Part shown: piece by piece, positions 45,424 to 59,727 of the stretch
Layout: each line of letters starts with the position of its first letter
How positions within the stretch are numbered: position 1 is the first letter of the stretch
Assembly: GCA_963654365.1 (NCBI GenBank)
Contig: CAVJZP010000004.1
Span: 1 to 59,727 of the forward strand
Length of the DNA: 59,727 bases
From: Oscillospiraceae bacterium
GTDB taxonomy: Bacteria > Bacillota_I > Bacilli_A > RFN20 > CAG-288
Direction: 5' to 3'
Position numbers and translations under genes: made by a program
Notes under the pieces: model-generated
Told to the model about the DNA's origin: nothing
Seen by the model: only the letters and a program-made list of their open reading frames with translations
Databases searched by the model: none

Positions 45424-47262
45424 CTATTTCGAGAAAAAGGCGACAATCTTTTTCCAAAGATCCGAGAACCACTTGGCGATTTTCTGGAAGAAGGAGAGTT
45501 TTTCTTCCATGCTCTTGATATCTGTCTCCGATACGATGTTCAGTGTCAGATCCACTCTTTCACACTCTTTGTCATCGGCCTCTAAAAGTAGCGAGAACTC
45601 ATGGGTTCCCAAAGAAAGACTGTTGTCGATATTCTCGCCTTGCAGAATTGTCCACTTCACGTAATTGCGGTTCTCTATCACTTCCTGACGGATCAAAGAG
45701 GAGATGATGTTTTCCATGGTAGGAATATTGTCCTTGCTTGCCGTGATGAAGCTCTTCTTGGCATAGAAAACCGGCCCTTCCGAATCCTGCACACGGATAT
45801 TGATGCTCTTCGTGCTCTGATTTCCGTGTCGGTCAGTGGAAGATACGGTAAAGATATAGTCGCCGACTTTGTCTCGGTTATCCGTATACGTATCCTCTAC
45901 CACTTTTAACGCCGTATTCCCATCGATGTCATCTATGGCCGTGAACATGCCTAAAATCTTCTCCTGGCTGTAATTGCTGAATGGACTGAGATTCATCTCA
46001 TCTACCGTAGAGGAAATCACAGGAGGAACGTCATCGATGAGAGTAAGGTCAAAAGGAAGTTCAGATTCGTTTCCGGAACTGTCCTTTGCCTTCACCACAC
46101 AGGAATAGTAGCCGATTTTGTCTTTTGGGAGTTCATCCCCATTATCGAGATATAGATGTGTCACTACCTCATCATCGTAATTGTCCGAAACGCAGAAATT
46201 CTTATTGATGAAATCGGAGGAATTGAAATCCACTTTATAGCTTGTGACAATCTCTTTCTTATTCAGATAGGCAATCGTCGGTCCTTTGTTGTCTACAATC
46301 ACGAAATGGAAAGTGATATAGGATCTGTTTCCTTGGCTGTCCTCGCTTCCAAAGCGGACAGTGAAGACAGTTCCTAACGCTGCTGACTGTCCTTTAGTGA
46401 AGTAGTCATCCGGATCCTCGATGATATCGGGATGTTTTTCTGTCCCATCGTATCTATCTTTTGCCAAAAAGGCGCGAGTGAGATAATCGACGGAATAGAC
46501 ACTCCCATACTGGGAATTGAGATTGTATTCCGGATTGGAACCAATGTTGACCGTATAATCACCGATTGCACAGTCGTTCCCAGTATATGGAATAACAGCT
46601 AAGTCATCCTCACACGCCTGAGAGAGTACCAGACTGACATTGGATATCTCCTCCGGCATGTCGCCATAGAGATAACGGAGATAACGGATCTTCTGACCGC
46701 TTTTCAGATTAAAGGCGATGATGATGGACTTGGATTTGTGGAAGATGCTCTCCACAGTGCGGAATACGTCATTGGATATCGTTCCTCTTGCGCTAGTTTC
46801 ATGGTCGATATAGAGGTCAGAAAGCCTTCTTGCTTTCTTTCTTGTCGATTTTTCCAAAAGCGTTCCGTCTTTATCGACGATACCCATCTCTAGTCCAAGC
46901 ATCAGATTCTCGCTGTTCTCTGCAAACTTGATGGGATCATTCTTAAAGCAGATGCAGAGAAGGAAACTCTTTTCCGTATTCTCTTCCATCGAAGAGAAGT
47001 ACATGTCAGGGAGAACTTTTCCGTATTCCTCACCGGCTTTGTTGCCAATCTCCACTTCTCCTCTCTCAGCCATGTTTCCATAGAAGCCTGTCGGAAGATA
47101 GTTGACCTTGTATTCCGGTTTTGTGCCAAGCACACCAAGGGTACAGATCTTTTCTTCCTGCTCCGTCAATGCCGCATTCTTCTTCTCCATCTGAGTGCTG
47201 GAATAGGAGCAGGAACAGAGAAGAAGAGTCATCAGTGTCATCCAAAGTCTTTTCTTTTTCAT
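45424..47262 (-). CDS. Surface lipoprotein with Ig-like (DUF5011/HYR-type) repeats
   Basis: MKKKRLWMTLMTLLLCSC is a signal peptide with a lipobox-like LCSC. Repeated domain boundaries are VDNKGPTIAY, IDDVPPVISS and VQDSEGPVFYA, with ...D.DG...G.Y...V...D..GN patterns. Confidence 0.6.
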   Translation of the reverse strand: MKKKRLWMTLMTLLLCSCSYSSTQMEKKNAALTEQEEKICTLGVLGTKPEYKVNYLPTGFYGNMAERGEVEIGNKAGEEYGKVLPDMYFSSMEENTEKSFLLCICFKNDPIKFAENSENLMLGLEMGIVDKDGTLLEKSTRKKARRLSDLYIDHETSARGTISNDVFRTVESIFHKSKSIIIAFNLKSGQKIRYLRYLYGDMPEEISNVSLVLSQACEDDLAVIPYTGNDCAIGDYTVNIGSNPEYNLNSQYGSVYSVDYLTRAFLAKDRYDGTEKHPDIIEDPDDYFTKGQSAALGTVFTVRFGSEDSQGNRSYITFHFVIVDNKGPTIAYLNKKEIVTSYKVDFNSSDFINKNFCVSDNYDDEVVTHLYLDNGDELPKDKIGYYSCVVKAKDSSGNESELPFDLTLIDDVPPVISSTVDEMNLSPFSNYSQEKILGMFTAIDDIDGNTALKVVEDTYTDNRDKVGDYIFTVSSTDRHGNQSTKSINIRVQDSEGPVFYAKKSFITASKDNIPTMENIISSLIRQEVIENRNYVKWTILQGENIDNSLSLGTHEFSLLLEADDKECERVDLTLNIVSETDIKSMEEKLSFFQKIAKWFSDLWKKIVAFFSK

Positions 47263-47362
47263 AGTGTTGCCTCCATAAAGACATATGTCCGAAGGTGACT
47301 ATCTATTCAAAGATTTCAAAAAAAATCAAAAGAAGCAAAGTTAATGATATAATGATTGCATT

Positions 47363-47441
47363 GCTCCCGTAGCTCAGCCCGGATTAGAGCGACCGCCTCC
47401 TAAGCGGTAGGCCAAGGGTTCAATTCCCTTCGGGAGCGCCA
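47363..47441 (+). tRNA. tRNA-Arg (CCT)
   Basis: Acceptor GCTCCCG/CGGGAGC, anticodon stem ACCGC/GCGGT with loop CTCCTAA, T-arm AAGGG-TTCAATT-CCCTT, encoded CCA. An extended -10 (TGATATAAT) ends at 47353. Confidence 0.85.
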
Positions 47442-47445
47442 CTTT

Positions 47446-47523
47446 GTGCCCGTAGCTCAGCCTGGATAGAGCACAAGCCTCCGAAGCCTGGGGCCATGGG
47501 TTCAAATCCCTTCGGGCACGCCA
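47446..47523 (+). tRNA. tRNA-Arg (CCG), imperfect stems
   Basis: Acceptor GTGCCCG/CGGGCAC and loop CTCCGAA. The anticodon stem CAAGC/GCCTG has an A-C mismatch and the T-stem ATGGG/CCCTT has a T-T mismatch. Encoded CCA. Confidence 0.65.
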
Positions 47524-47532
47524 GAAAATAAC

Positions 47533-47853
47533 ATGATCACAAAAACCGTCATTCGACTGATGTTCGCCATCGCCAAAATGTCTAAGAAAGCCAGCGCAAT
47601 CTATCTTGCGATTCTGACTGTTTTATTCAGTGGCGCTTTGGTATCCTTACTCTATGGCGCCATCTATCTGACAAACGGAAATGACGGATATCCAGATCGT
47701 GTCGTACTGATATTGATTCTCGGCTTCGTTTTCTTCTTCTTCGTTGTTGCGATGATTGCTCTTACTACGATTGCAAGCAACTACGTCAGAAAGAATCCGG
47801 ACAAAAATCCGAGGGAGAACAAGAAAGAGAACGGAAATCAAACCGCAGAATGA
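47533..47853 (+). CDS. Small hypothetical membrane protein (2 TM)
   Basis: 106-aa ORF with two hydrophobic segments. There is no SD and it starts 10 nt after tRNA-Arg, so the true start is uncertain. Confidence 0.4.
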   Translation: MITKTVIRLMFAIAKMSKKASAIYLAILTVLFSGALVSLLYGAIYLTNGNDGYPDRVVLILILGFVFFFFVVAMIALTTIASNYVRKNPDKNPRENKKENGNQTAE

Positions 47854-47882
47854 CTCGCTTTATAAAGAAAGCGAGTTTTTTC
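47853..47882 (+). terminator. Terminator after the small membrane ORF (and the tRNA-Arg pair)
   Basis: ACTCGCTTT-ataaag-AAAGCGAGT followed by TTTTTT. Confidence 0.75.
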
Positions 47883-47896
47883 ATAAATCAAATCTG

Positions 47897-47926
47897 TTGT
47901 CACCGCTGATGGTCAAAATCTATAAT
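47897..47926 (+). promoter_or_regulatory. Promoter candidate for cysK-cysE
   Basis: TTGTCA, 18 nt, TATAAT, 29 nt upstream of the cysK ATG. Confidence 0.55.
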
Positions 47927-47955
47927 ATTGATGATTTCACAAAGGAGAACATCTT

Positions 47956-48876
47956 ATGGCTATTCAAAACAATACAATGCTGAATCTGATTGGAAACACT
48001 CCGTTAGTCCGTCTTTTTCATATCGAGGAAGAATATCATCTCTCCTCACCGATCTATGCAAAATTAGAGAGATGCAATCCGACGGGTTCCATCAAGGACA
48101 GAATTGCAAAGGAGATGATACTTACCGCCTTAAAGGAAGGAAAGATCAATAAGAATACACTGATCATTGAACCGACAAGCGGCAATACCGGAATCGGTCT
48201 CTGCGCTATCGCTGCCTCTTTAGGAATGAAGGCCGTCATCTTCATGCCGAGCAACTGCTCCAAAGAGAGAATCCAGATGATGGAAGCTTTCGGAGCGGAG
48301 TGCAGACTTGTCAAAGAGGGCGGCATGGCCAAGTGCATCGAAGAGGCGGAAAGGCTACATGCTGAAGTAGCTGACTCCTATATTCCCCTTCAGTTTGAAA
48401 ACCCCGCCAATTGGAAGGCACACTATCTGACAACTGGTCCTGAGATTTACTCACAGACAGAAGGAAAAGTCGATATCTTTATCTCGGCCTTCGGTACCGG
48501 AGGAACTCTTACTGGAGTGAGCAAATACCTCAAAGAGAAGAATCCGAACGTTCTCTCCTTTGGTGTAGAGCCCGCTTCTTCCGCCGTCATCACGACCGGA
48601 AAGAAAGGCGCACACAAGATTCAGGGAATCGGTGCCGGCTTCAAGCCGGAGGTCCTGAATCTCGATTATGTGGACAAAGTCCTCACCTGCACCGATGAGG
48701 ATGCCTATCGTCTCACCAAGGAACTGGCAAGAAAAGAAGGACTCTTTGTCGGCATCTCCTCTGGTGCAAATGTCAATACAGCCATCGAGATTGCAAAGCA
48801 GTATCCGAATAAAGTGATTGTCACTGTTCTTCCGGATAACGGAGAACGCTATCTTTCTGTTGAAGGATTGTTCTGA
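47956..48876 (+). CDS. cysK: Cysteine synthase A (O-acetylserine sulfhydrylase)
   Basis: NPTGSIKDRIA carries the PLP lysine. TSGNTGIGLC and GTGGT loops are present. 306 aa. Confidence 0.9.
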   Translation: MAIQNNTMLNLIGNTPLVRLFHIEEEYHLSSPIYAKLERCNPTGSIKDRIAKEMILTALKEGKINKNTLIIEPTSGNTGIGLCAIAASLGMKAVIFMPSNCSKERIQMMEAFGAECRLVKEGGMAKCIEEAERLHAEVADSYIPLQFENPANWKAHYLTTGPEIYSQTEGKVDIFISAFGTGGTLTGVSKYLKEKNPNVLSFGVEPASSAVITTGKKGAHKIQGIGAGFKPEVLNLDYVDKVLTCTDEDAYRLTKELARKEGLFVGISSGANVNTAIEIAKQYPNKVIVTVLPDNGERYLSVEGLF

Positions 48877-48878
48877 GT

Positions 48879-49703
48879 ATGGAAAAGATGCTTTCTAAAC
48901 TGAAAGAGGAATTCAGCAAAGAGGAAGGGAAGACTCATCTGGATCAGGAGGAAGTCAGAAAATTCTGTAAGGAAATCACAGGGCTACTGATGCTGGATTA
49001 TTATCTTCCTGATTATGAGGACAAAGATTTAGAGATGCGGTATGAGAATGCCAAAGGCCTTCTTGACCACCTTCTCTCTGGACTTGTCCCCTCTGACTCT
49101 TCTACGATTTCCCAATCCTTTTTTCTTTCTTTGCCTCAGCTTCGCAGGACACTGAACACTTCGATTGATGCTATATTCGAAGGAGATCCCGCTTCTGTTT
49201 CCAAGCAGCAGATTGTTTTAGAATATCCTGGCTTTGAAGCCATCTTATACTATCGGATTGCACATGAGTTCTATACCCTCTCTCTTCCTCTTCTCTCCCG
49301 CTCCATCTCTGAGATTGCGCATCATCATACCGGTATCGACATCAATTCTGGAGCTACGATCGGCGACTACTTTTTCATCGATCACGGAACTGGCATTGTT
49401 GTCGGGGAAACTGCTATCATCGGTAGCCATGTGAAGCTTTATCAGGGTGTCACTTTGGGCGCTCTTTCTCTTAGCAAGGGAAGAGTATTAATGGGTTCCA
49501 AGCGCCATCCGACCGTAGAGGATTCTGTGACGATTTATTCCAATGCCGCTATCTTTGGAGGCGACACTGTGATTGGAGAGCATTCCACCATCGGTGGAGA
49601 TGTCTACCTCACCCATTCTGTCGATCCTTATAGCATCGTACTGCAAACCGACAAGAACCTTACGATTCATCCTAGCCTTCAGACAAAAAAGATGGAGAAA
49701 TAG
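48879..49703 (+). CDS. cysE: Serine O-acetyltransferase
   Basis: Left-handed beta-helix hexapeptide region GATIGDYFFIDHGTGIVVGETAIIGSHVKLYQGVTLG. Lies 2 nt after cysK. Confidence 0.85.
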   Translation: MEKMLSKLKEEFSKEEGKTHLDQEEVRKFCKEITGLLMLDYYLPDYEDKDLEMRYENAKGLLDHLLSGLVPSDSSTISQSFFLSLPQLRRTLNTSIDAIFEGDPASVSKQQIVLEYPGFEAILYYRIAHEFYTLSLPLLSRSISEIAHHHTGIDINSGATIGDYFFIDHGTGIVVGETAIIGSHVKLYQGVTLGALSLSKGRVLMGSKRHPTVEDSVTIYSNAAIFGGDTVIGEHSTIGGDVYLTHSVDPYSIVLQTDKNLTIHPSLQTKKMEK

Positions 49704-49754
49704 ACTCCGTCTTTTTTCTCTTTGCGTATAAAAACAGAGACAAAAAGAAGGTGA

Positions 49755-49773
49755 ACAATGATAAAATCATTGT
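49755..49773. promoter_or_regulatory. Perfect 8-3-8 inverted repeat, candidate TetR operator
   Basis: ACAATGAT-aaa-ATCATTGT, 70 nt upstream of the TetR-family gene. Confidence 0.5.
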
Positions 49774-49842
49774 ACAGGCTTTTTCCTTCATCTCGTCTTA
49801 AAGACTGCTTTCTTTATCCAGCATCTCAGAAAGAGGACAACA

Positions 49843-50403
49843 ATGGCAAATGAACTGACCAAAAAGGCAATGGAACAGGCTTTCATGAAACTGTTATCCC
49901 AGAAGCCTTTCAAGAAGATCACAGTCTCTGACATCACAGAAGAGTGCGGGATCAACCGCATGACTTTCTATTATCATTTTGAGGATATCTATGCCCTTCT
50001 CGACTACAGTCTCAAATACGAGATGGAGAAGGCATTGGACGGCAAGTTTGACGCTTCCACTTGGATGGAGGGCATGAAGAACATCTTTGAGGTATCCTAC
50101 AAATACAAATACCTTGTCATCAACGCCTACAAATTCAATTCCCGTGGGAATGTCGAAAGCGTTCTCGATCCCATCGTCTATCAATTGACCTACCACGTAG
50201 TCAAGGAGGAGGCCGAGGGACATAATGTTCCAGACGAGGATCTGACTTTTGTCGCTGACTGTTATAAGCATCTCTTGATCGGTACAGTCCTTGACTGGAT
50301 CAAAAACGATATGAAGGATGACTATCAGATACTTTTGAAGAAGATTGAGAATTTCCTCAACGGTGAGACGGAATGGATTCTCTCGAAATTCGATAAGGCT
50401 TAG
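49843..50403 (+). CDS. TetR/AcrR-family transcriptional regulator
   Basis: The N-terminal HTH KKITVSDITEECGINRMTFYYHFEDIY is typical of TetR_N. Confidence 0.85.
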   Translation: MANELTKKAMEQAFMKLLSQKPFKKITVSDITEECGINRMTFYYHFEDIYALLDYSLKYEMEKALDGKFDASTWMEGMKNIFEVSYKYKYLVINAYKFNSRGNVESVLDPIVYQLTYHVVKEEAEGHNVPDEDLTFVADCYKHLLIGTVLDWIKNDMKDDYQILLKKIENFLNGETEWILSKFDKA

Positions 50404-50479
50404 CGCTTTCTTTCTACCCTTTAGGTCTATATTAGGTTGGCTTCATATTATCTAGATTCAATAACAGTGGAGGTGTTTT

Positions 50480-51166
50480 ATGAGAATATTGTTAGTGGAT
50501 GACGAGAAAAGTTTTGTTCAGGCGATGAGGGAGATTTTAATCCAGAACAGATACACAGTCGACTTTGCCTATAACGGCCAAGAAGCCTTGGAGTATCTCC
50601 AGAATGAGAAATTCGACTGCCTTCTTCTGGACATCATGATGCCTCAGGTCGACGGATATACTGTTCTTGAGACGATCAGAAAGAAAGGAGACACCACTCC
50701 TGTCATCTTCCTCTCGGCAAAGAGCGATATCGACGATAAAGTCAAAGGATTCGAATTAGGTGGAGACGATTATCTCTCCAAGCCGTTCTCGAGCAAAGAG
50801 CTCTTGGTTCGTTTAAAGGCAATTCTAAGAAGAAAAGATGGCTTGGCTGATTCCAATCTCTGCTATCAAGGTCTGATTCTAGACACTTCCTCTTTCTCTT
50901 TGGTCTATGACAAAAACAAGATTCCGCTTTCGAGCAAGGAATATCAGCTGATGGAGATCTTCTTAAGAAAGCCGGAGAACATCCATTCCTCGGAGGCGTT
51001 GATGAAAGAGGCGTGGAGCATCGACTCCTATTCGGATGTCTCTTCTCTCTGGGTCTTCATTTCCAATCTCAGAAAGAAGTTAAAAGATATCCATTCTCCT
51101 TTCACTATCAAATCGGAAAGAGGATTAGGGTACCGATTGGAGAAGAAGGATGTTCCGGAAGCTTAG
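50480..51166 (+). CDS. Response regulator, OmpR/PhoB family
   Basis: MRILLVDDE...LLDIMMPQVDG form the receiver. The C-terminal winged helix ends in RGLGYRL. Confidence 0.9.
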   Translation: MRILLVDDEKSFVQAMREILIQNRYTVDFAYNGQEALEYLQNEKFDCLLLDIMMPQVDGYTVLETIRKKGDTTPVIFLSAKSDIDDKVKGFELGGDDYLSKPFSSKELLVRLKAILRRKDGLADSNLCYQGLILDTSSFSLVYDKNKIPLSSKEYQLMEIFLRKPENIHSSEALMKEAWSIDSYSDVSSLWVFISNLRKKLKDIHSPFTIKSERGLGYRLEKKDVPEA

Positions 51167-52361
51167 ATTCCGTTTTTCCTTTCTTGTCACAGGAATCACA
51201 TTCCTTGTCCTTTTTGCGATTGTCATCATCATAAACTTATCCATCTATTTCAACATCTGCTGCCGTCTCAATTCGGAGGCGAAGATAGCATATTCAAGGC
51301 CATTTGAGAAAAAGGAAAAGGTGGATTCCAATACGGATAGTGGAAACAATGATAAGCCAGACAAGGGCAAAATGCTTCCTCGCTATTTTTTCATTGAAAA
51401 GAATGGAGACACTTACTCTTTGTCAGAGGATCAGGTCTATGGAATCGGTATGATCGATGTCCAGACGGCTGGGGAAGATGTCTTTTCCAGGAGCAAAGAT
51501 GTTGGATTCTATAACTCCTACTATTACTATCGAGAGAATGACAAGGCTGTCTTTTTGGATGCGATGAGCGAGCAGGATGTCCTCAGCTCCACCCTCATCC
51601 TGTCCTCTTCCGTGGCCGCTTCTGCCTTTGTCCTGATTTCCGCTTCCGCCTTTCTCGTATCCAGAAAAGTCATCCAGCCTTATGAGAAGCTCTATCAGTC
51701 TCAGAGGCGCTTTTTGACGGATGCCTCCCACGAGCTGAAAACTCCGCTTGCCATCATCTCAGCCAATCTGGAAATCCTTGAAAAAGAGAATCCTAACGAG
51801 AACAAGTGGGTTGTCTCTAGCATTGCGCAGACGGAGAAGATGAGGAGTCTTGTCAATGAGCTTGTCCTTCTCAACAAGATTGAGGAAAGTGACGGAAATC
51901 CTGAGATGGAGGATTTCGATATCGGAACCGATTTCATCGAGGCAAGCGATTCCTTTGCCTCTCTTGCCATCGAAAAGAATGTGACATTCAGCACCGACAT
52001 CAAAGAAGGAGTCATCCTGAAAGCCAATGAGAATATGATCCTGAAGCTATTTGGAATCCTATTGGACAATGCGTTCAAATACGTCAATGAAAACGGCTTT
52101 GTGAATCTCTCCTTAAAGGAGGAGAAGAAGCGTCTTGTTCTCACTTTTGAGAACAGCGCAGAGAAAGTCGACAAAGACAAGATGAGCCATTGCTTTGAAA
52201 GATTCTATACCGTAGATGAATCGCACTCCCATCGCTCCAATGGCTATGGCATCGGTTTATCTATCGCCCAGGCCATTGTCAACGAGAACAATGGAACGAT
52301 CACCTGCATTGCGGATGAAGAGAAAAATCTAGTCTCTTTCATTGTCGCTTTCAAAAAATAA
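51150..52361 (+). CDS. Sensor histidine kinase (2 TM, HisKA, HATPase_c)
   Basis: FLTDASHELKTPL is the H-box, LDNAFKYV the N-box and GYGIGLSIA the G2 box. It overlaps the regulator gene by 17 nt. Confidence 0.9.
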   Translation: MFRKLRFRFSFLVTGITFLVLFAIVIIINLSIYFNICCRLNSEAKIAYSRPFEKKEKVDSNTDSGNNDKPDKGKMLPRYFFIEKNGDTYSLSEDQVYGIGMIDVQTAGEDVFSRSKDVGFYNSYYYYRENDKAVFLDAMSEQDVLSSTLILSSSVAASAFVLISASAFLVSRKVIQPYEKLYQSQRRFLTDASHELKTPLAIISANLEILEKENPNENKWVVSSIAQTEKMRSLVNELVLLNKIEESDGNPEMEDFDIGTDFIEASDSFASLAIEKNVTFSTDIKEGVILKANENMILKLFGILLDNAFKYVNENGFVNLSLKEEKKRLVLTFENSAEKVDKDKMSHCFERFYTVDESHSHRSNGYGIGLSIAQAIVNENNGTITCIADEEKNLVSFIVAFKK

Positions 52362-52425
52362 TTCGCTTTAAGTCAGTTTAAGAATCCTTTTTTAGAATAC
52401 ATGCATTCAAAGGAGGATTCATTCC

Positions 52426-54324
52426 ATGAAGAAAAACAGACTCTTATCTTTACTGGCTATTGTGATGCTTGCATCCTGTCAGTCGACAGCAGCAAGCGAT
52501 AGTTCTCTAACCAGTTCGTCCTCTTCTTCCTCTTTTTCCTATACGGACAGTATCGACGCCTTTGATGAAGAAGAGGCCATCGACATCGAATCCGATTACG
52601 AAAGCCAAGAAGAAGAGACGCTATCTGACACCGATACTTCAATCGATGTCTCAAGTATCGCTTCTGGTGAAAGCTACACCATCAAAGAAGGTGGCACTTT
52701 CGTTCTGAGCGGAAAGAATGACAACGCGAGAATCGTTATCAATACAAGCGATGATGTCATACTTCTCCTTAACAATGTCACATTGACTTCATTGACAGAT
52801 TCTCCGCTCGAGGTCAAGGCAGCCGCTTCCTTTAAAATCAAAGTCCTTTCCAAGACGAAGAACTATTTCACCGACAGTGAGAACAATACCCTGGAAGCCT
52901 GTATCCTTGTCAAGAAAGTAAAGCTCGAGATAGAAGGAACTGGATATCTCTATGTCGCAGGAAAAGGTCTTAGCAATGACACCGTCGACTCCGGTGTCGG
53001 CATTCAGGACGCCAAGGGAATCAGCATCAAGAATGCTCACATCCTTGTCACGGAATCTGTCTCTCACGCTTTGAACAGCAAAGCAGGTTTTGAAATCGAT
53101 TCCGCCAAACTTAGCCTTGTCTCGAAGAAGGACGGAATCCATTCCAAAGAAGGCAGTGTCAGTATCACTTCCTCTGTACTCAATAGCGATACCTATGGAG
53201 ACTCTATCGACGCCTTAGACACTGTCAATGTCACGTCGACTGACACCCATGTTGTCACCCATGGAGAATACGTTCTCTACGATGCCTCTTCTGATACGGG
53301 CAACTCTCTTTACGAAGACTCTGTATACATTCTGGAAAACGGAGAATACAAAAAGATTTCCGGCGATGAGATGACGCGTTATCATACTCGCTACTACCTG
53401 AATCAGAAGTGCAAAGGATTCAAAAGCGAAGCGACAGTCACTATCGATGGAGGAGACTATTATTTCTATACCGCGGATGATTCTTTAGCCAGCGATACAG
53501 AAATCGATGTCCTCTCTGGTGACTTTGTCTTCTATACCTTAGATCAGGCCATTAACTCCGATCAGATACTCAATATTGGTGTAAGCGGAAACGAAGAGGA
53601 TCTCTCTATCCACATCTATCACTCCTATGAGGGCATCCAAGGCGGAAACATCTCTTTCAATGAGGGTTACATCTATATTGTAAGCACGGATGATGGAATC
53701 AATGCGACAAGCGATAGCTTAGACTCTGTCTCGATGAATTTCCATGGCGGATCCACCGTCTATATCAATGCCTCTGGAGACGGAATCGACTCCAACGGAG
53801 ATGTCGTAATGGATGGCGGAAACCTGATCGTCTTCGGTCCTACTTCTGGCGGAGATGGATCTTTGGACTTCGATGGAAGTTTCACCTATACTGGTGGCAC
53901 GCTCTTTGCTCTATCTCAGCAGGGCATGGTTCAGACTCCTTCTACCGATAAAATGAACGTCGCTTCCTTAAATCTCTCCAGCTATGAGAAGAATGCACTC
54001 TTATCCTTTGTTGTCGATGACTTTGAATTCTCTACGATACTTCCGAAAGCCTACTCTCAGCTCAATGTCATCCTTGGAAGCGAAAATCTCACTACGAATA
54101 GTACGCTTCGCGTTTATACGCCGACTTCTGGAAAACTCACCTATACCAATAGCGTCTATGTCGGAAGCAAAGCCTCTGATGCAAGCGAGGATATTCTTTC
54201 TGTCACGATTCAAAGCGGACTGACTTCCTCTGGCAGTTCCAATAATGGTGGTCCAAATGGTGGAGGTCCTGGCGGTAATAACCAGCCTGGCGGAAACGGT
54301 GACAATAGACCGGATAAACCGTAA
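52426..54324 (+). CDS. Lipoprotein with predicted beta-helix / carbohydrate-binding-like repeats (DUF4353-like) and G/P/N-rich tail
   Basis: MKKNRLLSLLAIVMLASC is the lipobox region, followed by a Ser-rich linker. DGI.S.., GD.IDS and DGINA motifs recur. The C-terminus reads SSNNGGPNGGGPGGNNQPGGNGDNRPDKP. Confidence 0.5.
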   Translation: MKKNRLLSLLAIVMLASCQSTAASDSSLTSSSSSSSFSYTDSIDAFDEEEAIDIESDYESQEEETLSDTDTSIDVSSIASGESYTIKEGGTFVLSGKNDNARIVINTSDDVILLLNNVTLTSLTDSPLEVKAAASFKIKVLSKTKNYFTDSENNTLEACILVKKVKLEIEGTGYLYVAGKGLSNDTVDSGVGIQDAKGISIKNAHILVTESVSHALNSKAGFEIDSAKLSLVSKKDGIHSKEGSVSITSSVLNSDTYGDSIDALDTVNVTSTDTHVVTHGEYVLYDASSDTGNSLYEDSVYILENGEYKKISGDEMTRYHTRYYLNQKCKGFKSEATVTIDGGDYYFYTADDSLASDTEIDVLSGDFVFYTLDQAINSDQILNIGVSGNEEDLSIHIYHSYEGIQGGNISFNEGYIYIVSTDDGINATSDSLDSVSMNFHGGSTVYINASGDGIDSNGDVVMDGGNLIVFGPTSGGDGSLDFDGSFTYTGGTLFALSQQGMVQTPSTDKMNVASLNLSSYEKNALLSFVVDDFEFSTILPKAYSQLNVILGSENLTTNSTLRVYTPTSGKLTYTNSVYVGSKASDASEDILSVTIQSGLTSSGSSNNGGPNGGGPGGNNQPGGNGDNRPDKP

Positions 54325-54339
54325 TCAGTCAAATAATAA

Positions 54340-54396
54340 AAAAGCATCCTAATAAGGATTTCCTCTAGTCAGACAAGAGTTCCCTAGGATGCTTTT
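54340..54396. terminator. Bidirectional terminator between the lipoprotein gene and the MarR gene
   Basis: 12-bp stem AAAAGCATCCTA / TAGGATGCTTTT around a long loop. Confidence 0.55.
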
Positions 54397-54399
54397 CCT

Positions 54400-54840
54400 T
54401 TATTTGATTTCCAGATAATCTTTTAAGTTAAGACAGATCTTTTTCATGGTTACAATGAAGTTCATCGCCTCCTCATCCGAGATTCCAATTCTTGCCTTTT
54501 CTAAGGCAGGAGCAATTTCTTTCTGAATATCGGAAGTGAGGACTTCACCGCTCACCGTCAAGGCGATTTTCTCTTTGTATTTTCCTTTGTTGTCATAGAC
54601 AATGTATTCTTTTTCCTTCAGGATTTTCAAAGCCTTGGAGATTGCCGCTTTATCCTCTAAGGTAAGTGAGATAAGTTCGGTTGCAGATAGCGGTCCTTTG
54701 TATCTCAGATAGAAGAGACATTCCACATGAATGGTCTTAAGTCCCTTCTTTCGAATGACATTCTCCTTCAGCTGATAGACAAACCTGGAGAGCATCTTGA
54801 TATAGGTCAGAATATCATCGACTCTTTGGTCTTCATTCAT
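54400..54840 (-). CDS. MarR-family transcriptional regulator
   Basis: 146 aa. The winged-helix core is LSATELISLTLEDKAAISKALKILKEKEYI. Confidence 0.75.
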   Translation of the reverse strand: MNEDQRVDDILTYIKMLSRFVYQLKENVIRKKGLKTIHVECLFYLRYKGPLSATELISLTLEDKAAISKALKILKEKEYIVYDNKGKYKEKIALTVSGEVLTSDIQKEIAPALEKARIGISDEEAMNFIVTMKKICLNLKDYLEIK

Positions 54841-54913
54841 TTTATAAAATCCTCCTTTTTGATTTTATAATATGCAACATTTATATAAATTTGAAGCAGG
54901 GTGAATTATCGAT

Positions 54914-54948
54914 AATCATAGAGAAATCAACCGATTTTATCTATGATT
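54914..54948. promoter_or_regulatory. 9-bp inverted repeat upstream of the MarR gene (operator candidate)
   Basis: AATCATAGA (54914-54922) and TCTATGATT (54940-54948), separated by 17 nt. Confidence 0.3.
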
Positions 54949-55130
54949 CTAAGAGAAACGCCGTCGTTTCGCCTACGGGTTAATTTATCATAATCCATTC
55001 CTATTGCGTTTTCAACATACTTTTTATGAACACTATAAAAAAGAGAGATTTTTATTGAGTTCTTGTGTTACTGTTCATATTTCTGCTCCATGTATCGAAT
55101 CAAAACCTTGGAAAGAAATCAAAACAATTA

Positions 55131-55159
55131 CTGAAAAACACCTGATTTTTATGTATAAT
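55131..55159 (+). promoter_or_regulatory. Promoter candidate for tRNA-Leu(UAG)
   Basis: CTGAAA, 17 nt, TATAAT with an upstream TG (extended -10). Confidence 0.45.
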
Positions 55160-55200
55160 GTTAAGGCTGTCGAATAGATTTTCTATACAGCAATCCTAAC

Positions 55201-55284
55201 GGGCGTATGGTGGAATTGGTAGACACGCAAGACTTAGGATCTTGTGCCATTGGCATGCAGGTTCGATTCCTGTTACGCCCACCA
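55201..55284 (+). tRNA. tRNA-Leu (TAG)
   Basis: Acceptor GGGCGTA/TACGCCC, anticodon stem CAAGA/TCTTG with loop CTTAGGA, long variable arm, T-loop TTCGATT, encoded CCA. Confidence 0.9.
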
Positions 55285-55296
55285 CTTGTATTATTG

Positions 55297-55321
55297 CCTC
55301 CGCAATGTTGCGGAGGTTTTT
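55297..55321 (+). terminator. Terminator after tRNA-Leu(UAG)
   Basis: CCTCCGCA-atgt-TGCGGAGG followed by TTTTTA. Confidence 0.75.
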
Positions 55322-55489
55322 ATGTCTTAAAGAAAAGAAACTAACACACCTGAATTACAACGCATTATTGCGATGGATAACAACGGGTCATCCCACCCGT
55401 TTTCGTCTAACAAGTAGGGTTCATTGTAAACTCACACATTCTTATCTTATGATGTTATTAACAGCGAATATTGCTTAGTTCATTTAACA

Positions 55490-55533
55490 CTTCAACATAG
55501 CTTCAACACTTACTTCAATGGAACTTCAATGGA
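55490..55533. repeat. Four CTTCAA(C/T)(A/G) motifs at 11-12 bp spacing, the last two forming an exact 11-bp tandem duplication
   Basis: The motif starts at 55490, 55501, 55513 and 55524. acttcaatgga occurs twice in tandem (55512-55533). Confidence 0.6.
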
Positions 55534-55863
55534 ATCGTGACCAGATTTCATCGTATATCACTTTATAAGTTTTCGGCTATTTCTTTATTTGTGAAATATT
55601 TTCTTAGTTGTCTTACCACAGAGATGAATGTCAGAAGTCTACTTTTCACTGCCGATTCAATATGTTGTAAGTCGCGTTCATATTTTTGTAATATCAATCA
55701 ATTTCCATACGTGATCTTTATAAAAACCAGTAAGCAAAAATCATCCGCGGAGGCACCTTTTTGTACTGAACTCCACTTGTTGGAGCAGGAACAATAGACA
55801 AAGATGAATAAGACATAGCAGATGATTTAAAAGAAGTCTTTATCGCGAGCAGAAGAGAAAAAG

Positions 55864-55877
55864 TACAAATTATTGTA
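55864..55877. promoter_or_regulatory. Palindrome TACAA-ATTA-TTGTA overlapping a -35-like hexamer (operator/promoter, copy 1)
   Basis: aaaaaGTACAAATTATTGTATCTTTTCATC. TTGTAT, 16 nt, TAATAG follows. It lies 100 nt upstream of the ATG at 55977. A near-identical module is at 57640. Confidence 0.5.
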
Positions 55878-55976
55878 TCTTTTCATCTAGTTTCTAATAG
55901 ATGCATTATAATGATTATAATTATAAACAGTTGATAGCATGAGTTTAAAAAATGAAATCAAGGAGACACAAAGAAA

Positions 55977-56384
55977 ATGAATGAAACAAATGAGATCTTA
56001 GGGGCAAACAGTCAGAACATTCACTTTATTGGGAACGAAAAAATTTTGGAAAAGAAGCTGCTATCCCTTTGCCAGGAAGACAACATTCCTGTCAAAATCA
56101 TTGATGTGCTTGAAGAAGATAACGGACACAAGACAGATCTATCTGATCTATTCGATGAACTTCAGAAGAATAACGCCTTGCTATATCTAAAAAACTATAC
56201 AAAAGCTAGGCCTAATGTTCGGTATAAATTCTCTTGTATCTATAAACATCAGTGTTCTACCATCAATGGAATCGTCAACAAGGAAAGCCTTCAATATTTA
56301 GGGACAGTCATCATCTCTTCTGAGGATGATCTCTTTGAATTGGATGATAGCGAGTCATCGTGTTTCCGACATGTTCACATGTAA
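55977..56384 (+). CDS. Hypothetical acidic protein (135 aa)
   Basis: AAGGAG lies 8 nt upstream. No motif recognised. First gene of a two-gene operon (19-nt gap to the next gene). Confidence 0.55.
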   Translation: MNETNEILGANSQNIHFIGNEKILEKKLLSLCQEDNIPVKIIDVLEEDNGHKTDLSDLFDELQKNNALLYLKNYTKARPNVRYKFSCIYKHQCSTINGIVNKESLQYLGTVIISSEDDLFELDDSESSCFRHVHM

Positions 56385-56403
56385 AACGACGGAGATTTAA
56401 TCT

Positions 56404-57558
56404 ATGACCTATAATAATGACAGTAATAAAAGTCAGAAAGTCGCAGAGATTCTCTCTGTTCTAAGAATATACTTTGAAAAGACTAGCAAAAGTAACACTT
56501 TAAAGAAAAAGGAAATCCAAGACATTTCCAAAAATGCATATGATGTCGAAATCGAAAAAAGAAGGCTATCTGATATCATTAATGCAATCGAAGATATTTC
56601 GAGAAGCAATCCTGATCTTTTACCATACAAAATCAACACAAAAGGAAATAAATTCTATCGGGAGGGCTTTATTCTATCGGATGAGGATATCGATTTAATC
56701 ATCCAAATACTCAATGAATCATCTTTGATTTCCGATACTGAAAACGATTCGCTTCAGAACAGTCTGAGATCATTACAGTCTGTTGGTCATAAGTCTTATA
56801 TGAAAAACAAGGCAAGGAATGCAGATCCACGAATCAAGGATTTCCGTCATCTGAAAAACATAGCTAAGAAAAATGTGGTAGCAGATAATGGAGCCCGATA
56901 TTTTACTTTCGATTATGATTCTATCACTGAGGAAGAAATGTATATCTATCCTAAGATTCCGTTGAAAAAGGCAATAGGATTGAATGGTTTTGTCATCGAC
57001 ATCATCAATTGCTATGATGAGGAAGCACGCGTTTGTCTATTCGGAAACCTTCGAATCAATCACAACATATCAAAAGAATATCCGGTATTGATGATTCTCC
57101 CGATTTCAAAAATCATTGTCGATTTCAATAAGTCAAAAGAAGATTGGAGTCTTGATGAGATTAAGTATTGCCTTAATTTCAAATATGGAAACACCCGAAA
57201 TTATAATGACGCCTTTGAAGCAATAGAAGAATATAAGAAAGGAAATGAATCTGTTATATTCAATTTTGAAATCAAGTACATGGATAACGATGTGGATATC
57301 GTTGAACCACACGATAAGATTGTCAAAGAAGCTTTGAGGAAATTCTATCCATCACAATATGACAAGTTGAAATTTATTCAGCATAAAGATAGAACCGTTC
57401 ATGTCAAGTTTGTTTCAACGATAACTCGATTCTATAAGTTCTATTGTTCAAACATTAAGCTATTAGGAATACTAGGAATTGTATCTCCTGATTTTGTAGC
57501 AAGCAAATTAGTCTACTATTCTGATCAAATAAGCCAACACAACACGAAACACAAGTAA
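56404..57558 (+). CDS. Putative DNA-binding regulator, N-terminal winged-helix-like segment; possible HTH-WYL-WCX architecture
   Basis: VAEILSVLRIYFEKTS..LKKKEIQDIS......IEKRRLSDIINAIEDI resembles the DeoR/YafY-type wHTH found in WYL regulators. The middle and C-terminal parts are beta-rich. The assignment is by eye only. Confidence 0.35.
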   Translation: MTYNNDSNKSQKVAEILSVLRIYFEKTSKSNTLKKKEIQDISKNAYDVEIEKRRLSDIINAIEDISRSNPDLLPYKINTKGNKFYREGFILSDEDIDLIIQILNESSLISDTENDSLQNSLRSLQSVGHKSYMKNKARNADPRIKDFRHLKNIAKKNVVADNGARYFTFDYDSITEEEMYIYPKIPLKKAIGLNGFVIDIINCYDEEARVCLFGNLRINHNISKEYPVLMILPISKIIVDFNKSKEDWSLDEIKYCLNFKYGNTRNYNDAFEAIEEYKKGNESVIFNFEIKYMDNDVDIVEPHDKIVKEALRKFYPSQYDKLKFIQHKDRTVHVKFVSTITRFYKFYCSNIKLLGILGIVSPDFVASKLVYYSDQISQHNTKHK

Positions 57559-57567
57559 AAGCCGATT

Positions 57568-57602
57568 GGATTATCAGAAAACGACATGATGATAATCCTT
57601 TA
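57568..57602 (+). terminator. Weak terminator candidate after the regulator gene
   Basis: GGATTATC (57568-57575) / GATAATCC (57591-57598) with a 15-nt loop, then TTTAAA. Confidence 0.35.
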
Positions 57603-57639
57603 AACGATTGCACGAATCACAAATATCGCACTCAAAAAA

Positions 57640-57653
57640 TACAATTATTTGTA
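57640..57653. promoter_or_regulatory. Palindrome TACAA-TTAT-TTGTA overlapping a -35-like hexamer (operator/promoter, copy 2)
   Basis: aaaaaATACAATTATTTGTACATTTTCAGC. TTGTAC, 17 nt, TATACA follows. It lies 72 nt upstream of the ATG at 57725. Confidence 0.5.
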
Positions 57654-57724
57654 CATTTTCAGCACAAAGCATATACAAACTTGTTTTCTTATAAAATATA
57701 GATGCTACTTATAAGGAGGCAAGA

Positions 57725-58390
57725 ATGAAAAACACTTGGCTATTAAAAAGAAAAGGAAAAAGGGAACGTAAATTCCCTTCTTTTGAAGATGCAGTCACGG
57801 CAATGAAAGAAGAAATCATTTCCGTAATAAAACAGTATTCCAAAGACAACACGATACTTGGATTCAAATCATACTTTGATGCAAAAAGACAAAACGGGAC
57901 GATAACAAATGAAGAACTGATTATCGAAAGCCGTCTATCAATGCTGATTGATTCCTTGTACTATCCAGACAGAGAATCAGCAAAATGGCAAGCCTTAAAG
58001 TCCATCAAGCAAAAGTACTTCTATGATAGTGACACGAATCAAAATCAAGATGTTCTTTGCATACATATTGATAGGATAGGAAACGAAATCTCATTGAATC
58101 TGAATTCGAAGGAACGTTCAAATCGTACTGAAAATCATGAAGATTCCTCTGTCATCAGAAAATTGCAAACGAACGCCTTTGTTTTCAAAGAGAATGAAAA
58201 AGAAAGGTATTATTTCGTTCTCAGAGCAAGTTCAGCCATTGTAGAAGATAATAGGGAAGAGATTGCTGAGGAAGAAATAACCTTAACAAAACAAGAGGAC
58301 AAGTCAAAAGATCCTTCTGAATTCTCCGAAAAAGAGATCGAAAACATTCTGAAAGCGCTAGATGGCCCTTTCAAAAAAAATGACTTTTGA
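57725..58390 (+). CDS. Hypothetical protein (221 aa)
   Basis: AAGGAGG lies 7 nt upstream. No signal peptide, TM or motif recognised. Charged C-terminal third. Confidence 0.55.
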   Translation: MKNTWLLKRKGKRERKFPSFEDAVTAMKEEIISVIKQYSKDNTILGFKSYFDAKRQNGTITNEELIIESRLSMLIDSLYYPDRESAKWQALKSIKQKYFYDSDTNQNQDVLCIHIDRIGNEISLNLNSKERSNRTENHEDSSVIRKLQTNAFVFKENEKERYYFVLRASSAIVEDNREEIAEEEITLTKQEDKSKDPSEFSEKEIENILKALDGPFKKNDF

Positions 58391-58440
58391 AGAATATCTG
58401 GATTGGTGAGAAAGATGAAACAAGGATGGAGGAAAGAATC

Positions 58441-59700
58441 ATGAATAATGAAGATGATATCATCAACTCACTCAGTTGGGATACGAGACACTTCTTTGCA
58501 GATTTCATTAAGAAATTTGAAGACAAGATTGATACCGACGACACAAAAACCTTCGATGACGATAAAATATACGCCATTGATAAATCTGATTATCCTGCCA
58601 TGGCAGCCTATTGTCAAAAAGACAAAAGAGTCAATGATTTCAATGAGATTTCACCACTAAATTATTTCTTAGACGATGAGCTTTTCTGTGTTATGTTTCT
58701 TTATGATTATATTAGCTTCTCTTCCAATGAAATTCATCTGAATAAGAATTTGAAAAATATCAAAAATATGTCTTTCATTATAATCCCTGAAAAGGTCTAT
58801 GATATCACTGATCTGCTTAAAAGCAATATAGCAAAAAACGTTGAATCCGTATTCGTTAATCCCATGAATCTTCTCTTTGATTCAAGGGACAACTGTAATG
58901 CGATTATACTTCGGGGAGACCATCACGCAATCTTTCCCACATTAGACGCATTGATCTTTGGCTGTTACAAGACAAAAATTCCATCTTCCATTAAGATTAT
59001 AGGAAATTCGGCTTTTGCTAGTTGTAAAAAGTTAACTTCAATAGATATTCCTGATAATATCCAATGGATCTATGATAACGCTTTTCGCGACTGTACGAAT
59101 TTGATATCTATTCGATTATCAAAAAGATTATCCTATCTTGGACCTTTCACATTCGAAAAGTGTTCTAGTTTAAAGTCGATTGAATTACCTAAACAAATCA
59201 CTGAAATCAAATACAGCACCTTTCTTGGTTGCCGTAGTTTGGAATCCGTCACTTTTCCTCCTTCTTTAGAATTTATCGGAAATAAAGCCTTCTATGACTG
59301 CCAAAATTTAACTTCCATTTATATTCCAGGAAAAGTCAGAAAAATCAAAAGTGATGCATTCGGTCAAAGCCTATCGTTAGCGTCAATTTCTGTTGATAAA
59401 TCCAATAAAGTTTTCGATTCAAGAGACAACAGTAATGCGATCATCCGCACAAAAGATCATACTTTGATTTTAGCCTGCAACGAGACAAAGATTCCAAAAA
59501 ACATATTATCGATCGGATATCACGCGTTCATAAACTGTAAAAGGATAAAAGATATTGTTCTTCCTAGTTCCCTTCGCTCTATTGATGCCTTTGCTTTCTA
59601 CCAATGCAACCATATGGAACATTACTTCTATGAAGGCAGCCTTTACATGTTCAATAAGATAGAAATCAATAAAAAGTCAATAGTTGCACGTGGGTGGTAA
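58441..59700 (+). CDS. BspA-type leucine-rich-repeat (LRR_5-like) protein without signal peptide
   Basis: ORF track 58387..59700 (TTG). ATG 58441 is preferred (GGAGGAAAGAATC upstream). Repeats such as IPSSIKIIGNSAFASCKKLTSIDIP, IQWIYDNAFRDCTNLISIRL and LEFIGNKAFYDCQNLTSIYIP. The unit FDSRDN(C/S)NAII occurs twice. Confidence 0.7.
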   Translation: MNNEDDIINSLSWDTRHFFADFIKKFEDKIDTDDTKTFDDDKIYAIDKSDYPAMAAYCQKDKRVNDFNEISPLNYFLDDELFCVMFLYDYISFSSNEIHLNKNLKNIKNMSFIIIPEKVYDITDLLKSNIAKNVESVFVNPMNLLFDSRDNCNAIILRGDHHAIFPTLDALIFGCYKTKIPSSIKIIGNSAFASCKKLTSIDIPDNIQWIYDNAFRDCTNLISIRLSKRLSYLGPFTFEKCSSLKSIELPKQITEIKYSTFLGCRSLESVTFPPSLEFIGNKAFYDCQNLTSIYIPGKVRKIKSDAFGQSLSLASISVDKSNKVFDSRDNSNAIIRTKDHTLILACNETKIPKNILSIGYHAFINCKRIKDIVLPSSLRSIDAFAFYQCNHMEHYFYEGSLYMFNKIEINKKSIVARGW

Positions 59701-59727
59701 GATCAATCTGAAAATGTATAATAATGG

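Follow-up and report, generated by a model that had tools for sequence, protein, structure and literature searches.

The final 4.4 kb of contig CAVJZP010000004.1 (positions 55285-59727, here called the segment) begins directly after a tRNA-Leu(UAG) gene, runs to the contig end, and is accessory at both the strain and the species level; that it forms an accessory island in a hotspot is almost certain. We propose that this segment of the window, by which we mean the entire 59,727-nt stretch analyzed, is a strain-variable cassette in a tRNA-Leu(UAG) defense hotspot, in which a control module, made up of an AAA+-like protein and a divergent winged helix-turn-helix (wHTH) regulator of the WYL-WCX type, governs a cargo of a 221-amino-acid (aa) protein and a leucine-rich repeat (LRR) protein, and that the cargo is most likely a conflict system. 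Taken in its entirety, this statement appears to us evenly balanced between right and wrong, and its parts are graded separately below. The features on which it draws are the following.

55201-55284, forward strand: tRNA-Leu(UAG) (ARAGORN; Rfam, 60.2 bits); its 3' CCA end is the left edge of the variable region
55285-55423, forward strand: 139 nt shared with a strain of the same species (99.3% identical to positions 1240-1102 of locus L019), identity ending at 55423
55424-55858, no strand: strain-specific spacer, with no conserved open reading frame (ORF) and no RNA signal
55859-55883, no strand: Box 1, AAAAGTACAAATTATTGTATCTTTT, a palindromic operator-like site about 95 nt upstream of the 135-aa gene
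55977-56384, forward strand: P-loop-less AAA+-like protein of 135 aa (ORF; AlphaFold2 [AF2] model and Foldseek)
56404-57558, forward strand: divergent wHTH-WYL-like-WCX-like regulator of 384 aa (ORF; hhalign; AF2 model and Foldseek)
57634-57658, no strand: Box 2, AAAAAATACAATTATTTGTACATTT, a second copy of the palindrome about 70 nt upstream of the 221-aa gene
57725-58390, forward strand: protein of 221 aa, first gene of the cargo operon (ORF; no family match)
58387-59700, forward strand: BspA-type LRR protein, 437 aa from TTG at 58387 (overlapping the upstream stop codon) or 419 aa from ATG at 58441

An accessory segment at the 3' end of tRNA-Leu(UAG)

The comparison loci included L019 (GCA_963656485.1), from the same species; L002 (CAVILQ010000012), from a sister species; and L008, from a third species and congener. 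All relatives come from a few uncultured assemblies with contradictory taxonomic labels. The same-species locus was 98.5 to 99% identical to window positions 46392-55423 and unrelated beyond the divergence point at 55423/55424, past which it carries a Fic-domain gene matching the PADLOC SoFic model (E = 9.7e-40). The sister species has the same tRNA and the same flanking gene order as the window, at about 74.5% nucleotide identity. There, the tRNA is followed by orthologs of the 135-aa and 384-aa genes (73.3% nucleotide and 69 to 71% protein identity) and by a cargo comprising a 101-aa fragment of the LRR protein N terminus, a 161-aa relative of the 221-aa protein (interrupted by a run of Ns; the intact copy in L017, from GCA_963602655.1, has 206 aa), a 246-aa protein, and a 299-aa AAA_15 ATPase, which in both L002 and L017 resembles PtuA/AriA (E of about 1e-17). 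The third species was 83.4% identical to the sister species up to exactly the last tRNA base and unrelated afterwards; its slot holds a zinc-ribbon gene, a broken AAA_14 ATPase gene, a membrane-anchored LRR_5 protein, and a large helicase matching PDC-S37 (E = 3.4e-106) and Hhe (E = 2.8e-52). The alternative fillings were all AT-rich. Based on these differing contents, the 3' flank of tRNA-Leu(UAG) is a genus-level variable slot whose recognizable occupants are defense genes. An earlier reading, made from the sequence only, had described an accessory segment of distinct composition that abuts the tRNA, and this description held: L019 and L008 lack the segment at this site, and the comparison of strains with and without it revealed a presence/absence polymorphism rather than synteny in all relatives.

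The segment is also compositionally distinct. Its G+C content was 0.341 compared to 0.4425 for positions 1-55284, where the lowest of 509 sliding windows of the same length reached 0.407 (z = -4.6 for the segment), and G+C at third codon positions was 0.35 to 0.42 in its four genes compared to 0.49 to 0.57 in the adjoining core genes. The change to AT-rich DNA that the sequence-only reading had placed directly after the tRNA is thus real, and several of its other statements were borne out here. The four ORFs of 135, 384, 221, and 419 aa were recovered, all intact, the last with the alternative TTG start that extends it to 437 aa. The stretch of some 650 nt said to lack a convincing ORF came to 692 nt (55285-55976), and the LRR stop codon does lie 27 nt from the window end, which is also the contig end. 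Shine-Dalgarno sequences were strong in both operons, with AAGGAGG before the 221-aa gene. No integrase gene was present in the visible 4.4 kb, as had been remarked, and a search for a second copy of the tRNA 3' end in the window was likewise empty with up to 3 mismatches allowed. The products were said to fall outside characterized families, and the 135-aa, 384-aa, and 221-aa proteins indeed had no match in Pfam, NCBIfam, or PHROGs, nor in PADLOC other than one weak Cas2a match on the 384-aa protein; the sole family match was LRR_5 on the last protein.

Two hairpins lie in the ORF-poor stretch, a terminator-like one 3' of the tRNA (55296-55317, terminator scan) and a second, short one near 55378-55397 within the 139-nt shared portion. 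The spacer that follows (55424-55858) is probably decayed sequence. Neither blastn nor tblastx matched it to any of the fetched loci, apart from the 139 nt in common with L019, and on the tblastx result a pseudogene remnant was rejected. A noncoding RNA or retron-like element in 55285-55976 was also rejected, as Rfam at E ≤ 1 returned the tRNA alone and the folding z-scores of 55424-55858 were +1.9 and +0.5. Tandem Repeats Finder detected 11-nt repeats (ACTTCAATGGA, 2 to 3.6 copies) within the spacer at 55489-55534.

Accessory status did not coincide with recent arrival. Between the window and the sister species, the pair of 135-aa and 384-aa genes was as diverged as the core flanks (73.3% compared to 74.5% nucleotide identity), with a nonsynonymous substitution rate (dN) of 0.19 compared to 0.18 to 0.20 in core genes. 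The ratio of dN to the synonymous rate (dS) was 0.098 for the regulator and 0.09 to 0.135 for core genes, dS being saturated in all of these comparisons. Because its divergence equals that of the core flanks, the pair would have been resident in the lineage since before the species split; it is probably "accessory and old" rather than a recent foreign import, and the substitution rates indicate that it is under purifying selection. The accessory nature and the boundary at the tRNA, as read from the sequence, stand, with the qualification that the pair diverged like core genes.

Some further observations concern these loci and their sources. The AAA_14/DUF4143-type ATPase gene of L008 (13275-14564) is split into two frames (120 aa and 301 aa) and is probably a pseudogene, and Ser-rich lipoproteins are encoded in both L008 and L002. 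The core genes of L002 and L008, compared over 9 kb, are 83% identical in nucleotide sequence, yet the two loci are labeled "bacterium" and "Alistipes onderdonkii," and L023, from the same project, is labeled "uncultured Prevotella sp."; the labels look unreliable. Logan contigs from the source samples break in the tRNA T-arm (window position 55259, the matching point being position 1 of L018) and at the LRR stop codon, contig L001 spanning 55259-59700, and these break positions fit several alternative junctions co-existing in the source metagenomes.

Control module and two candidate operators

Upstream of the small gene, Box 1 was the sole block conserved with L002, L017, and L018 (96% over 25 nt). 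Its copy in L002 is a perfect 10+4+10 inverted repeat, and two candidate -10 hexamers follow it in the window (55907-55912 and 55916-55921). The core of the box, CAAAT..TTG, was invariant in seven loci whose proteins are 50 to 70% identical. A search of the window with Box 1, allowing 3 mismatches, returned one further site only (57636-57656; 0.00 expected by chance); for a degenerate box pattern, shuffles gave 0.07 expected sites per window. Both boxes, the only two in 59.7 kb, lie in promoter regions, one ahead of each operon, in agreement with the two-operon layout read from the sequence. Box 2 appeared as a 24-nt block with a single variable position among the window, L002, and L016, amid otherwise diverged intergenic DNA, and both box positions were kept in L002, L016, and L017 despite about 27% nucleotide divergence. 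The distribution of boxes across the loci was as follows.

Window, L002, L016, and L017: two each, one before the small gene and one just after the regulator gene
L003 and L023: one, upstream of the small gene
L004 to L007: one, upstream of the small gene; in L004 to L006, within the intergenic region shared with a divergent LRR_5 plus 200-aa operon
L018 (1.8-kb fragment ending inside the regulator gene): one, before the small gene
L024 to L026 (small proteins 33 to 58% identical to that of the window, each then followed by a gene of 366 to 442 aa): none with the degenerate pattern
L022 (regulator copy of the 52% type on a 3-kb contig): none with the degenerate pattern
L008, L019, L010, and L013 (no pair): none

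Together, these comparisons argue strongly for the boxes as a putative binding site of the regulator that links the control operon to the cargo operon. As a conserved box precedes each operon, the regulator probably controls its own operon as well as the 221-aa/LRR cargo, and a regulator with two operators is, in our judgment, likely.

The regulator was placed by profile comparison. A family profile built from 16 members matched a canonical protein with Pfam WYL and WCX domains (L025:7222-8208) in hhalign (96.7%, E = 3.7e-10) over residues 14-126, that is, over the winged helix and the following helices that make up the N-terminal 110 residues or so. At the level of sequence profiles, homology of the N-terminal domain to the wHTH of WYL+WCX proteins is thereby demonstrated. 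The WYL/WCX part is probable. An AF2 model of low confidence (predicted local distance difference test [pLDDT] of 60) showed a winged helix, a helical linker, a beta-rich domain (165-239), and an alpha/beta C terminus, and its top seven fold matches in the PDB were all DriD, either full length or the WYL-WCX C-terminal domain (Foldseek E of 1.3e-4 to 1.5e-2; template modeling [TM] score ≤ 0.26, low because the model is poor). The family also shares a conserved C-terminal motif, F..(F/W)Y.S....(L/I)......(V/I).(S/E)P, which we take to resemble the end of WCX domains. The 384-aa protein of the window had no Pfam match at E ≤ 1, including WYL (PF13280) and WCX (PF25583), none of 29 family members scanned carried a Pfam WYL- or HTH-type domain (E ≤ 0.01), and the family profile returned nothing significant in a PDB sequence search. 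We conclude that the 384-aa protein is a divergent wHTH-WYL-like-WCX-like transcription regulator, in keeping with the wHTH/WYL-like protein suggested by the sequence-only reading. The Cas2a-like PADLOC match (E = 2.6e-4, residues 28-73) falls on the winged-helix region, had no support from Pfam, fold, or context, and was treated as chance.

The family is small. It had 6 members in a word-based search of 5.8 billion proteins and 31 (E ≤ 1e-3) in a full hidden Markov model scan of 1.84 billion representatives, and the GTDB species representatives contained three relatives only. Searches with tblastn gave no match in the phage (INPHARED) or plasmid (PLSDB) collections or in IMG/VR, on which grounds a phage or plasmid origin was rejected, and JGI metagenome contigs held no relative.

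The small partner accompanies the regulator closely: all 13 of its homologs are encoded directly upstream of the regulator, down to 33% identity. The distant regulators are without this partner, and no homology was found between the small protein and the 153-aa gene that precedes them. The AF2 model of the 135-aa protein (pLDDT of 85.6; predicted TM score of 0.81) has an alpha/beta core that includes a beta-hairpin ahead of the fourth core strand, and the chain stops after the fifth. In Foldseek, the MoxR-type proteins NorQ and CbbQ were the best matches (E down to 8.9e-6, query TM score [TMq] of 0.60 to 0.71, probability of 1.00), followed by RuvB and Vps4, and MoxR-like phage ATPases were matched in BFVD; the small-protein profile itself had no significant match in a PDB sequence search. 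The protein is thus like MoxR-type AAA+ proteins and RuvB in its core (TMq of 0.6 to 0.7), and unlike them in what surrounds it. The Walker A P-loop, GxxxxGK[ST], is absent from all 13 homologs; the Walker B position reads LYLK[ND]Y throughout the family, so that K-N/D-Y stands where the acidic residues would be expected; and the family, at 135 to 169 aa, has no C-terminal lid domain. With an AAA+ core fold and without Walker A, a normal Walker B, or a lid, the 135-aa protein is a pseudo-AAA+ domain, unable to bind ATP in the ordinary manner or to work as a conventional ATPase. Its putative role is that of a regulator co-factor or of an adaptor that serves a different AAA+ machine. The small protein has 135 aa in the window (55977-56384) and in L016 (513-920) and 149 to 169 aa in the other eleven homologs, the shorter versions being without an N-terminal helix-forming stretch of some 20 to 30 residues.

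Cargo operon, genomic neighbors, and evidence for movement of the island

Homologs of the 221-aa protein were found beside LRR genes in L004 to L006 (30% identity, E = 5e-16) and in L002 and L017 (26 to 31%), and no domain was detectable in the protein itself with Pfam, NCBIfam, PHROGs, or PADLOC. The LRR protein matched Pfam LRR_5 (PF13306, E = 1.6e-68) in 3 stretches. Neither it nor its L004 homolog has a signal peptide, lipobox, or transmembrane segment; in the window protein, the best 12-residue N-terminal Kyte-Doolittle average was -0.19, and no 19-residue window exceeded 0.95. The signal-less BspA-type LRR protein proposed earlier, with no hydrophobic N terminus, was accordingly confirmed. 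It resembles BspA-type proteins in its strong LRR_5 match and differs from them in having no export or anchoring signal, in its family-specific N-terminal region, and in being paired genetically with a 200- to 221-aa protein. The N-terminal region, of about 180 aa, had no family match and no PDB sequence match, and conservation extends over its first 100 or so residues, at 33% with L004 and 60% with the L002 fragment. A partial NCBIfam match of the protein to the adhesin HupY/LrrG (E = 2.5e-20) lies far below the model cut-off. From the occurrences in the window, in L004 to L006, and in L002 and L017, where the LRR gene is truncated, the four-gene set recurs in varied order and orientation, and in L016 another LRR-type protein follows Box 2.

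Distant members of the regulator family (20 to 25% identity) adjoin an SNF2 helicase together with a MoxR AAA_3 ATPase and a VWA/DUF2201 protein; HAD_SAK_2 and ADP-ribosylglycohydrolase genes; genes for soluble FtsH-like AAA-M41 proteases; UvrD helicases and DUF2130 plus DUF2779; and Schlafen-type ATPases and helicases, a MazG-like protein, and a PDDEXK_4 nuclease. Such families form typical conflict-system neighborhoods. A few genes downstream of one distant homolog, a TIR plus LRR_5 fusion is encoded (L010:16372-17341), placing a cytoplasmic BspA-type LRR in an immune-type architecture. The soluble FtsH-like AAA plus Peptidase_M41 genes recur beside the family (L010:1-1217, L013:9525-11039, L024:6401-7798, and L025:9518-9636), near distant and closer members alike, often with the HAD_SAK_2 and ADP-ribosylglycohydrolase genes, and these three may constitute a separate conserved conflict module. 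A protein of 246 to 272 aa with no family match follows the regulator pair in four loci (L002:12410-13150, L017:12879-13619, L003:11250-11996, and L023:9167-9985); in L002 and L017 the PtuA/AriA-like AAA_15 ATPase comes next, and the two genes may make up an ATPase-plus-partner defense candidate.

Evidence of movement came from L002 and L017. The island of L002 (9293-14256) and that of L017 (9784-14725) were 97.0% identical over 4968 nt, and the two loci had nothing in common outside it: the L002 island follows tRNA-Leu(UAG), and in L017 a GtrA-like gene, tRNA-Ser(CGA), and tRNA-Gly(UCC) precede the island, which adjoins tRNA-Gly(UCC) directly. At the left junction, near-identity starts right after the encoded CCA (CCA/CTAAAGT..GCCTCCGC..GCGGAGG, the slash marking the junction). 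At the right junction, identity stops about 175 nt after the ATPase stop codon, and in L002, where a TetR gene flanks the island, the shared block reaches about 55 nt into the 3' end of that gene. The hairpin 3' of the tRNA is homologous in the window, L002, and L017 and different in L008; because the L002-L017 identity block includes it, this terminator hairpin may travel with the island. A k-mer assembly chimera appears unlikely, since the tRNA-Leu and tRNA-Gly 3' ends share 11 nt plus CCA only. The complete 4.9-kb island of L002 and L017 contained no recombinase or integrase and no direct repeat of the tRNA 3' end. The pair of L003 and that of L023 adjoin no tRNA. Between the near-identical regulator copies of L002 (10001-11155) and L017 (10491-11648), dN/dS was about 0.77 (dN of 0.026, dS of 0.034) compared to about 0.1 between species, which could reflect relaxed or diversifying selection or short-term polymorphism.

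Hotspots of this kind have precedents, as tRNA-linked defense hotspots are known in Escherichia coli (PMC10121019) and core defense hotspots in Pseudomonas aeruginosa (PMC10250203), and some of their occupants have no identifiable mobility genes (PMC10121019, PMC10250203). The tRNA-Leu(UAG) slot shares with them fixed flanks, defense-rich content that varies between strains and species, and some occupants without identifiable means of mobilization. It differs in that the junction falls exactly at the tRNA CCA end, that the tRNA 3' end is not duplicated, and that essentially the same 4.9-kb island sits at two tRNA genes.

Proposed mechanism and alternative explanations

In the mechanism that we propose, a dimer of the wHTH-WYL-WCX-type regulator, which forms the control module together with the pseudo-AAA+ 135-aa protein, would occupy Box 1 and Box 2 and repress both operons. 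A nucleic-acid-type cue from infection or DNA damage would bind the WYL-like domain and lead to derepression, as in BrxR, CapW, and DriD, and the pseudo-AAA+ partner may modulate or relay this cue. The 221-aa/LRR pair would then be made and would act on the invader or on the cell. Given its location, the cargo would most likely serve in conflict with phages or mobile elements, the LRR protein supplying recognition.

BrxR and CapW are wHTH-WYL-WCX repressors of phage defense systems (PMC9122601, PMC9122589, PMC9122588, PMC11662680), and CapW and DriD sense single-stranded DNA (PMC11662680, PMC10853764). BrxR has a pair of R-BOX inverted repeats, of which R-BOX1 is found in the promoter of BrxR itself and R-BOX2 ahead of the BREX genes, and 48% of BrxR homologs adjoin defense systems (PMC9122601). 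The segment is like these systems in a winged helix homologous to that of a canonical WYL+WCX protein, in the domain order predicted by the low-confidence model (a helical linker, a beta-rich domain, and an alpha/beta C terminus), in its position in a defense hotspot, and in boxes at the regulator's own promoter and at the next operon, as with R-BOX1 and R-BOX2. In contrast to BrxR and CapW, the 384-aa family shows no WYL or WCX signature that can be detected in its sequences, has without exception a gene for a P-loop-less AAA+-like protein just ahead of it, which those regulators lack, and is tiny, at 31 representatives in 1.84 billion proteins, with putative DNA binding and a putative ligand. 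A WYL-type regulator guarding defense-island cargo is already known; new are the regulator family, which is highly divergent, the P-loop-less AAA+-like protein as its obligate partner, the cargo of LRR and 221-aa proteins, and an integrase-less island at two tRNA CCA ends.

A defense function of the cargo, argued from location, is held here only tentatively, at somewhat less than even confidence. The suggestion of a defense-type system in the sequence-only reading fared in the same circumstantial way: the same flank in relatives does carry SoFic, Hhe/PDC-S37, and a PtuA/AriA-like ATPase, but the four proteins of the window match no PADLOC model. Several points weigh against the proposal. Its main weakness as an account of defense is that no enzymatic effector domain was predicted in the cargo proteins, and the 135-aa, 221-aa, and LRR proteins matched no model of PADLOC-DB 2.0, the 384-aa protein giving only the weak, isolated Cas2a match (E = 2.6e-4). 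The regulator has no Pfam WYL or WCX match, and its model is of low confidence (pLDDT of 60), with a TM score to DriD of 0.26 at most. Being as old as the core flanks, the pair need not be tied to mobile defense cargo. The context statistics are thin, as the family is seen in a handful of uncultured assemblies and has no member in the phage, plasmid, IMG/VR, and JGI metagenome collections. Finally, WYL regulators also control DNA-damage responses (PMC10853764) and adhesins (PMC11880434). We are doubtful of the more far-reaching possibility that the segment represents an undescribed anti-phage system, with the LRR and 221-aa proteins as sensor and effector under a WYL-type repressor and its pseudo-AAA+ co-factor, and/or a class of integrase-less islands inserting at the CCA ends of different tRNA genes.

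The pair could instead belong to a stress or DNA-damage regulon, as a damaged-DNA sensor native to the lineage and comparable to DriD or PafBC that activates its neighbors; its adjacency to defense genes would be incidental to a recombination hotspot. DriD, the WYL activator from Caulobacter and the best structural match of the pLDDT-60 model, is a DNA-damage activator and senses single-stranded DNA, as does CapW (PMC10853764, PMC11662680), and a pair that is as diverged as core genes, has a dN/dS of about 0.1, and lies away from any tRNA in L003 and L023 would suit such a role. DriD and PafBC differ from the segment in being chromosomal DNA-damage regulators and not accessory, and PafBC is a pairing of two WYL proteins, where the partner here is AAA+-like. 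Against this alternative, the pair is absent at the site in a same-species strain and in a congener, which would be out of the ordinary for a core stress regulator; the pair's neighbors are almost always conflict-type genes; and an island 97% identical to that of L002 occurs in a different genomic context. We regard this explanation as unlikely.

LRR_5/BspA proteins are typically surface proteins, and a second alternative is a regulated locus for host or cell interaction, in which an adhesin-like or protein-binding LRR protein is set by the WYL-type regulator. The partial HupY/LrrG match (E = 2.5e-20, far below the cut-off) and the membrane-anchored LRR_5 protein in the L008 hotspot point in this direction, and WYL control of adhesins is documented, MbpR being a WYL regulator of mucin-binding proteins in Lactiplantibacillus (PMC11880434). 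The LRR proteins of the window and of L004, however, have no signal peptide, lipobox, or transmembrane segment, the TIR-LRR_5 fusion in L010 shows that cytoplasmic LRR_5 occurs in conflict contexts, and the other occupants of the site are defense genes, so that an interaction locus seems quite improbable. That the segment is a decaying mobile-element remnant with genes no longer functional, as the missing integrase and att repeat, the featureless 435-nt spacer, the LRR gene truncated in L002 and L017, and a small protein some 20 to 30 residues shorter at its N terminus than most homologs might suggest, is very improbable given four intact ORFs, a regulator dN/dS of about 0.1, strong Shine-Dalgarno sequences in both operons, and two noncoding boxes kept almost base for base across about 27% nucleotide divergence.

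Sharp junctions at CCA ends, together with essentially the same island at two different tRNA genes and no recombinase, prompt one to ask by what means these cassettes are transferred. WYL-type repressors increasingly turn out to be widespread switches of bacterial immunity, and this locus adds a very divergent branch with a catalytically dead AAA+-like partner, whose two defined candidate operators make the regulatory logic directly testable. The cargo occupies the slot filled by SoFic and Hhe/PDC-S37 in sister genomes, and, if it is protective, it would add an LRR-based defense system from a poorly sampled, uncultured lineage.

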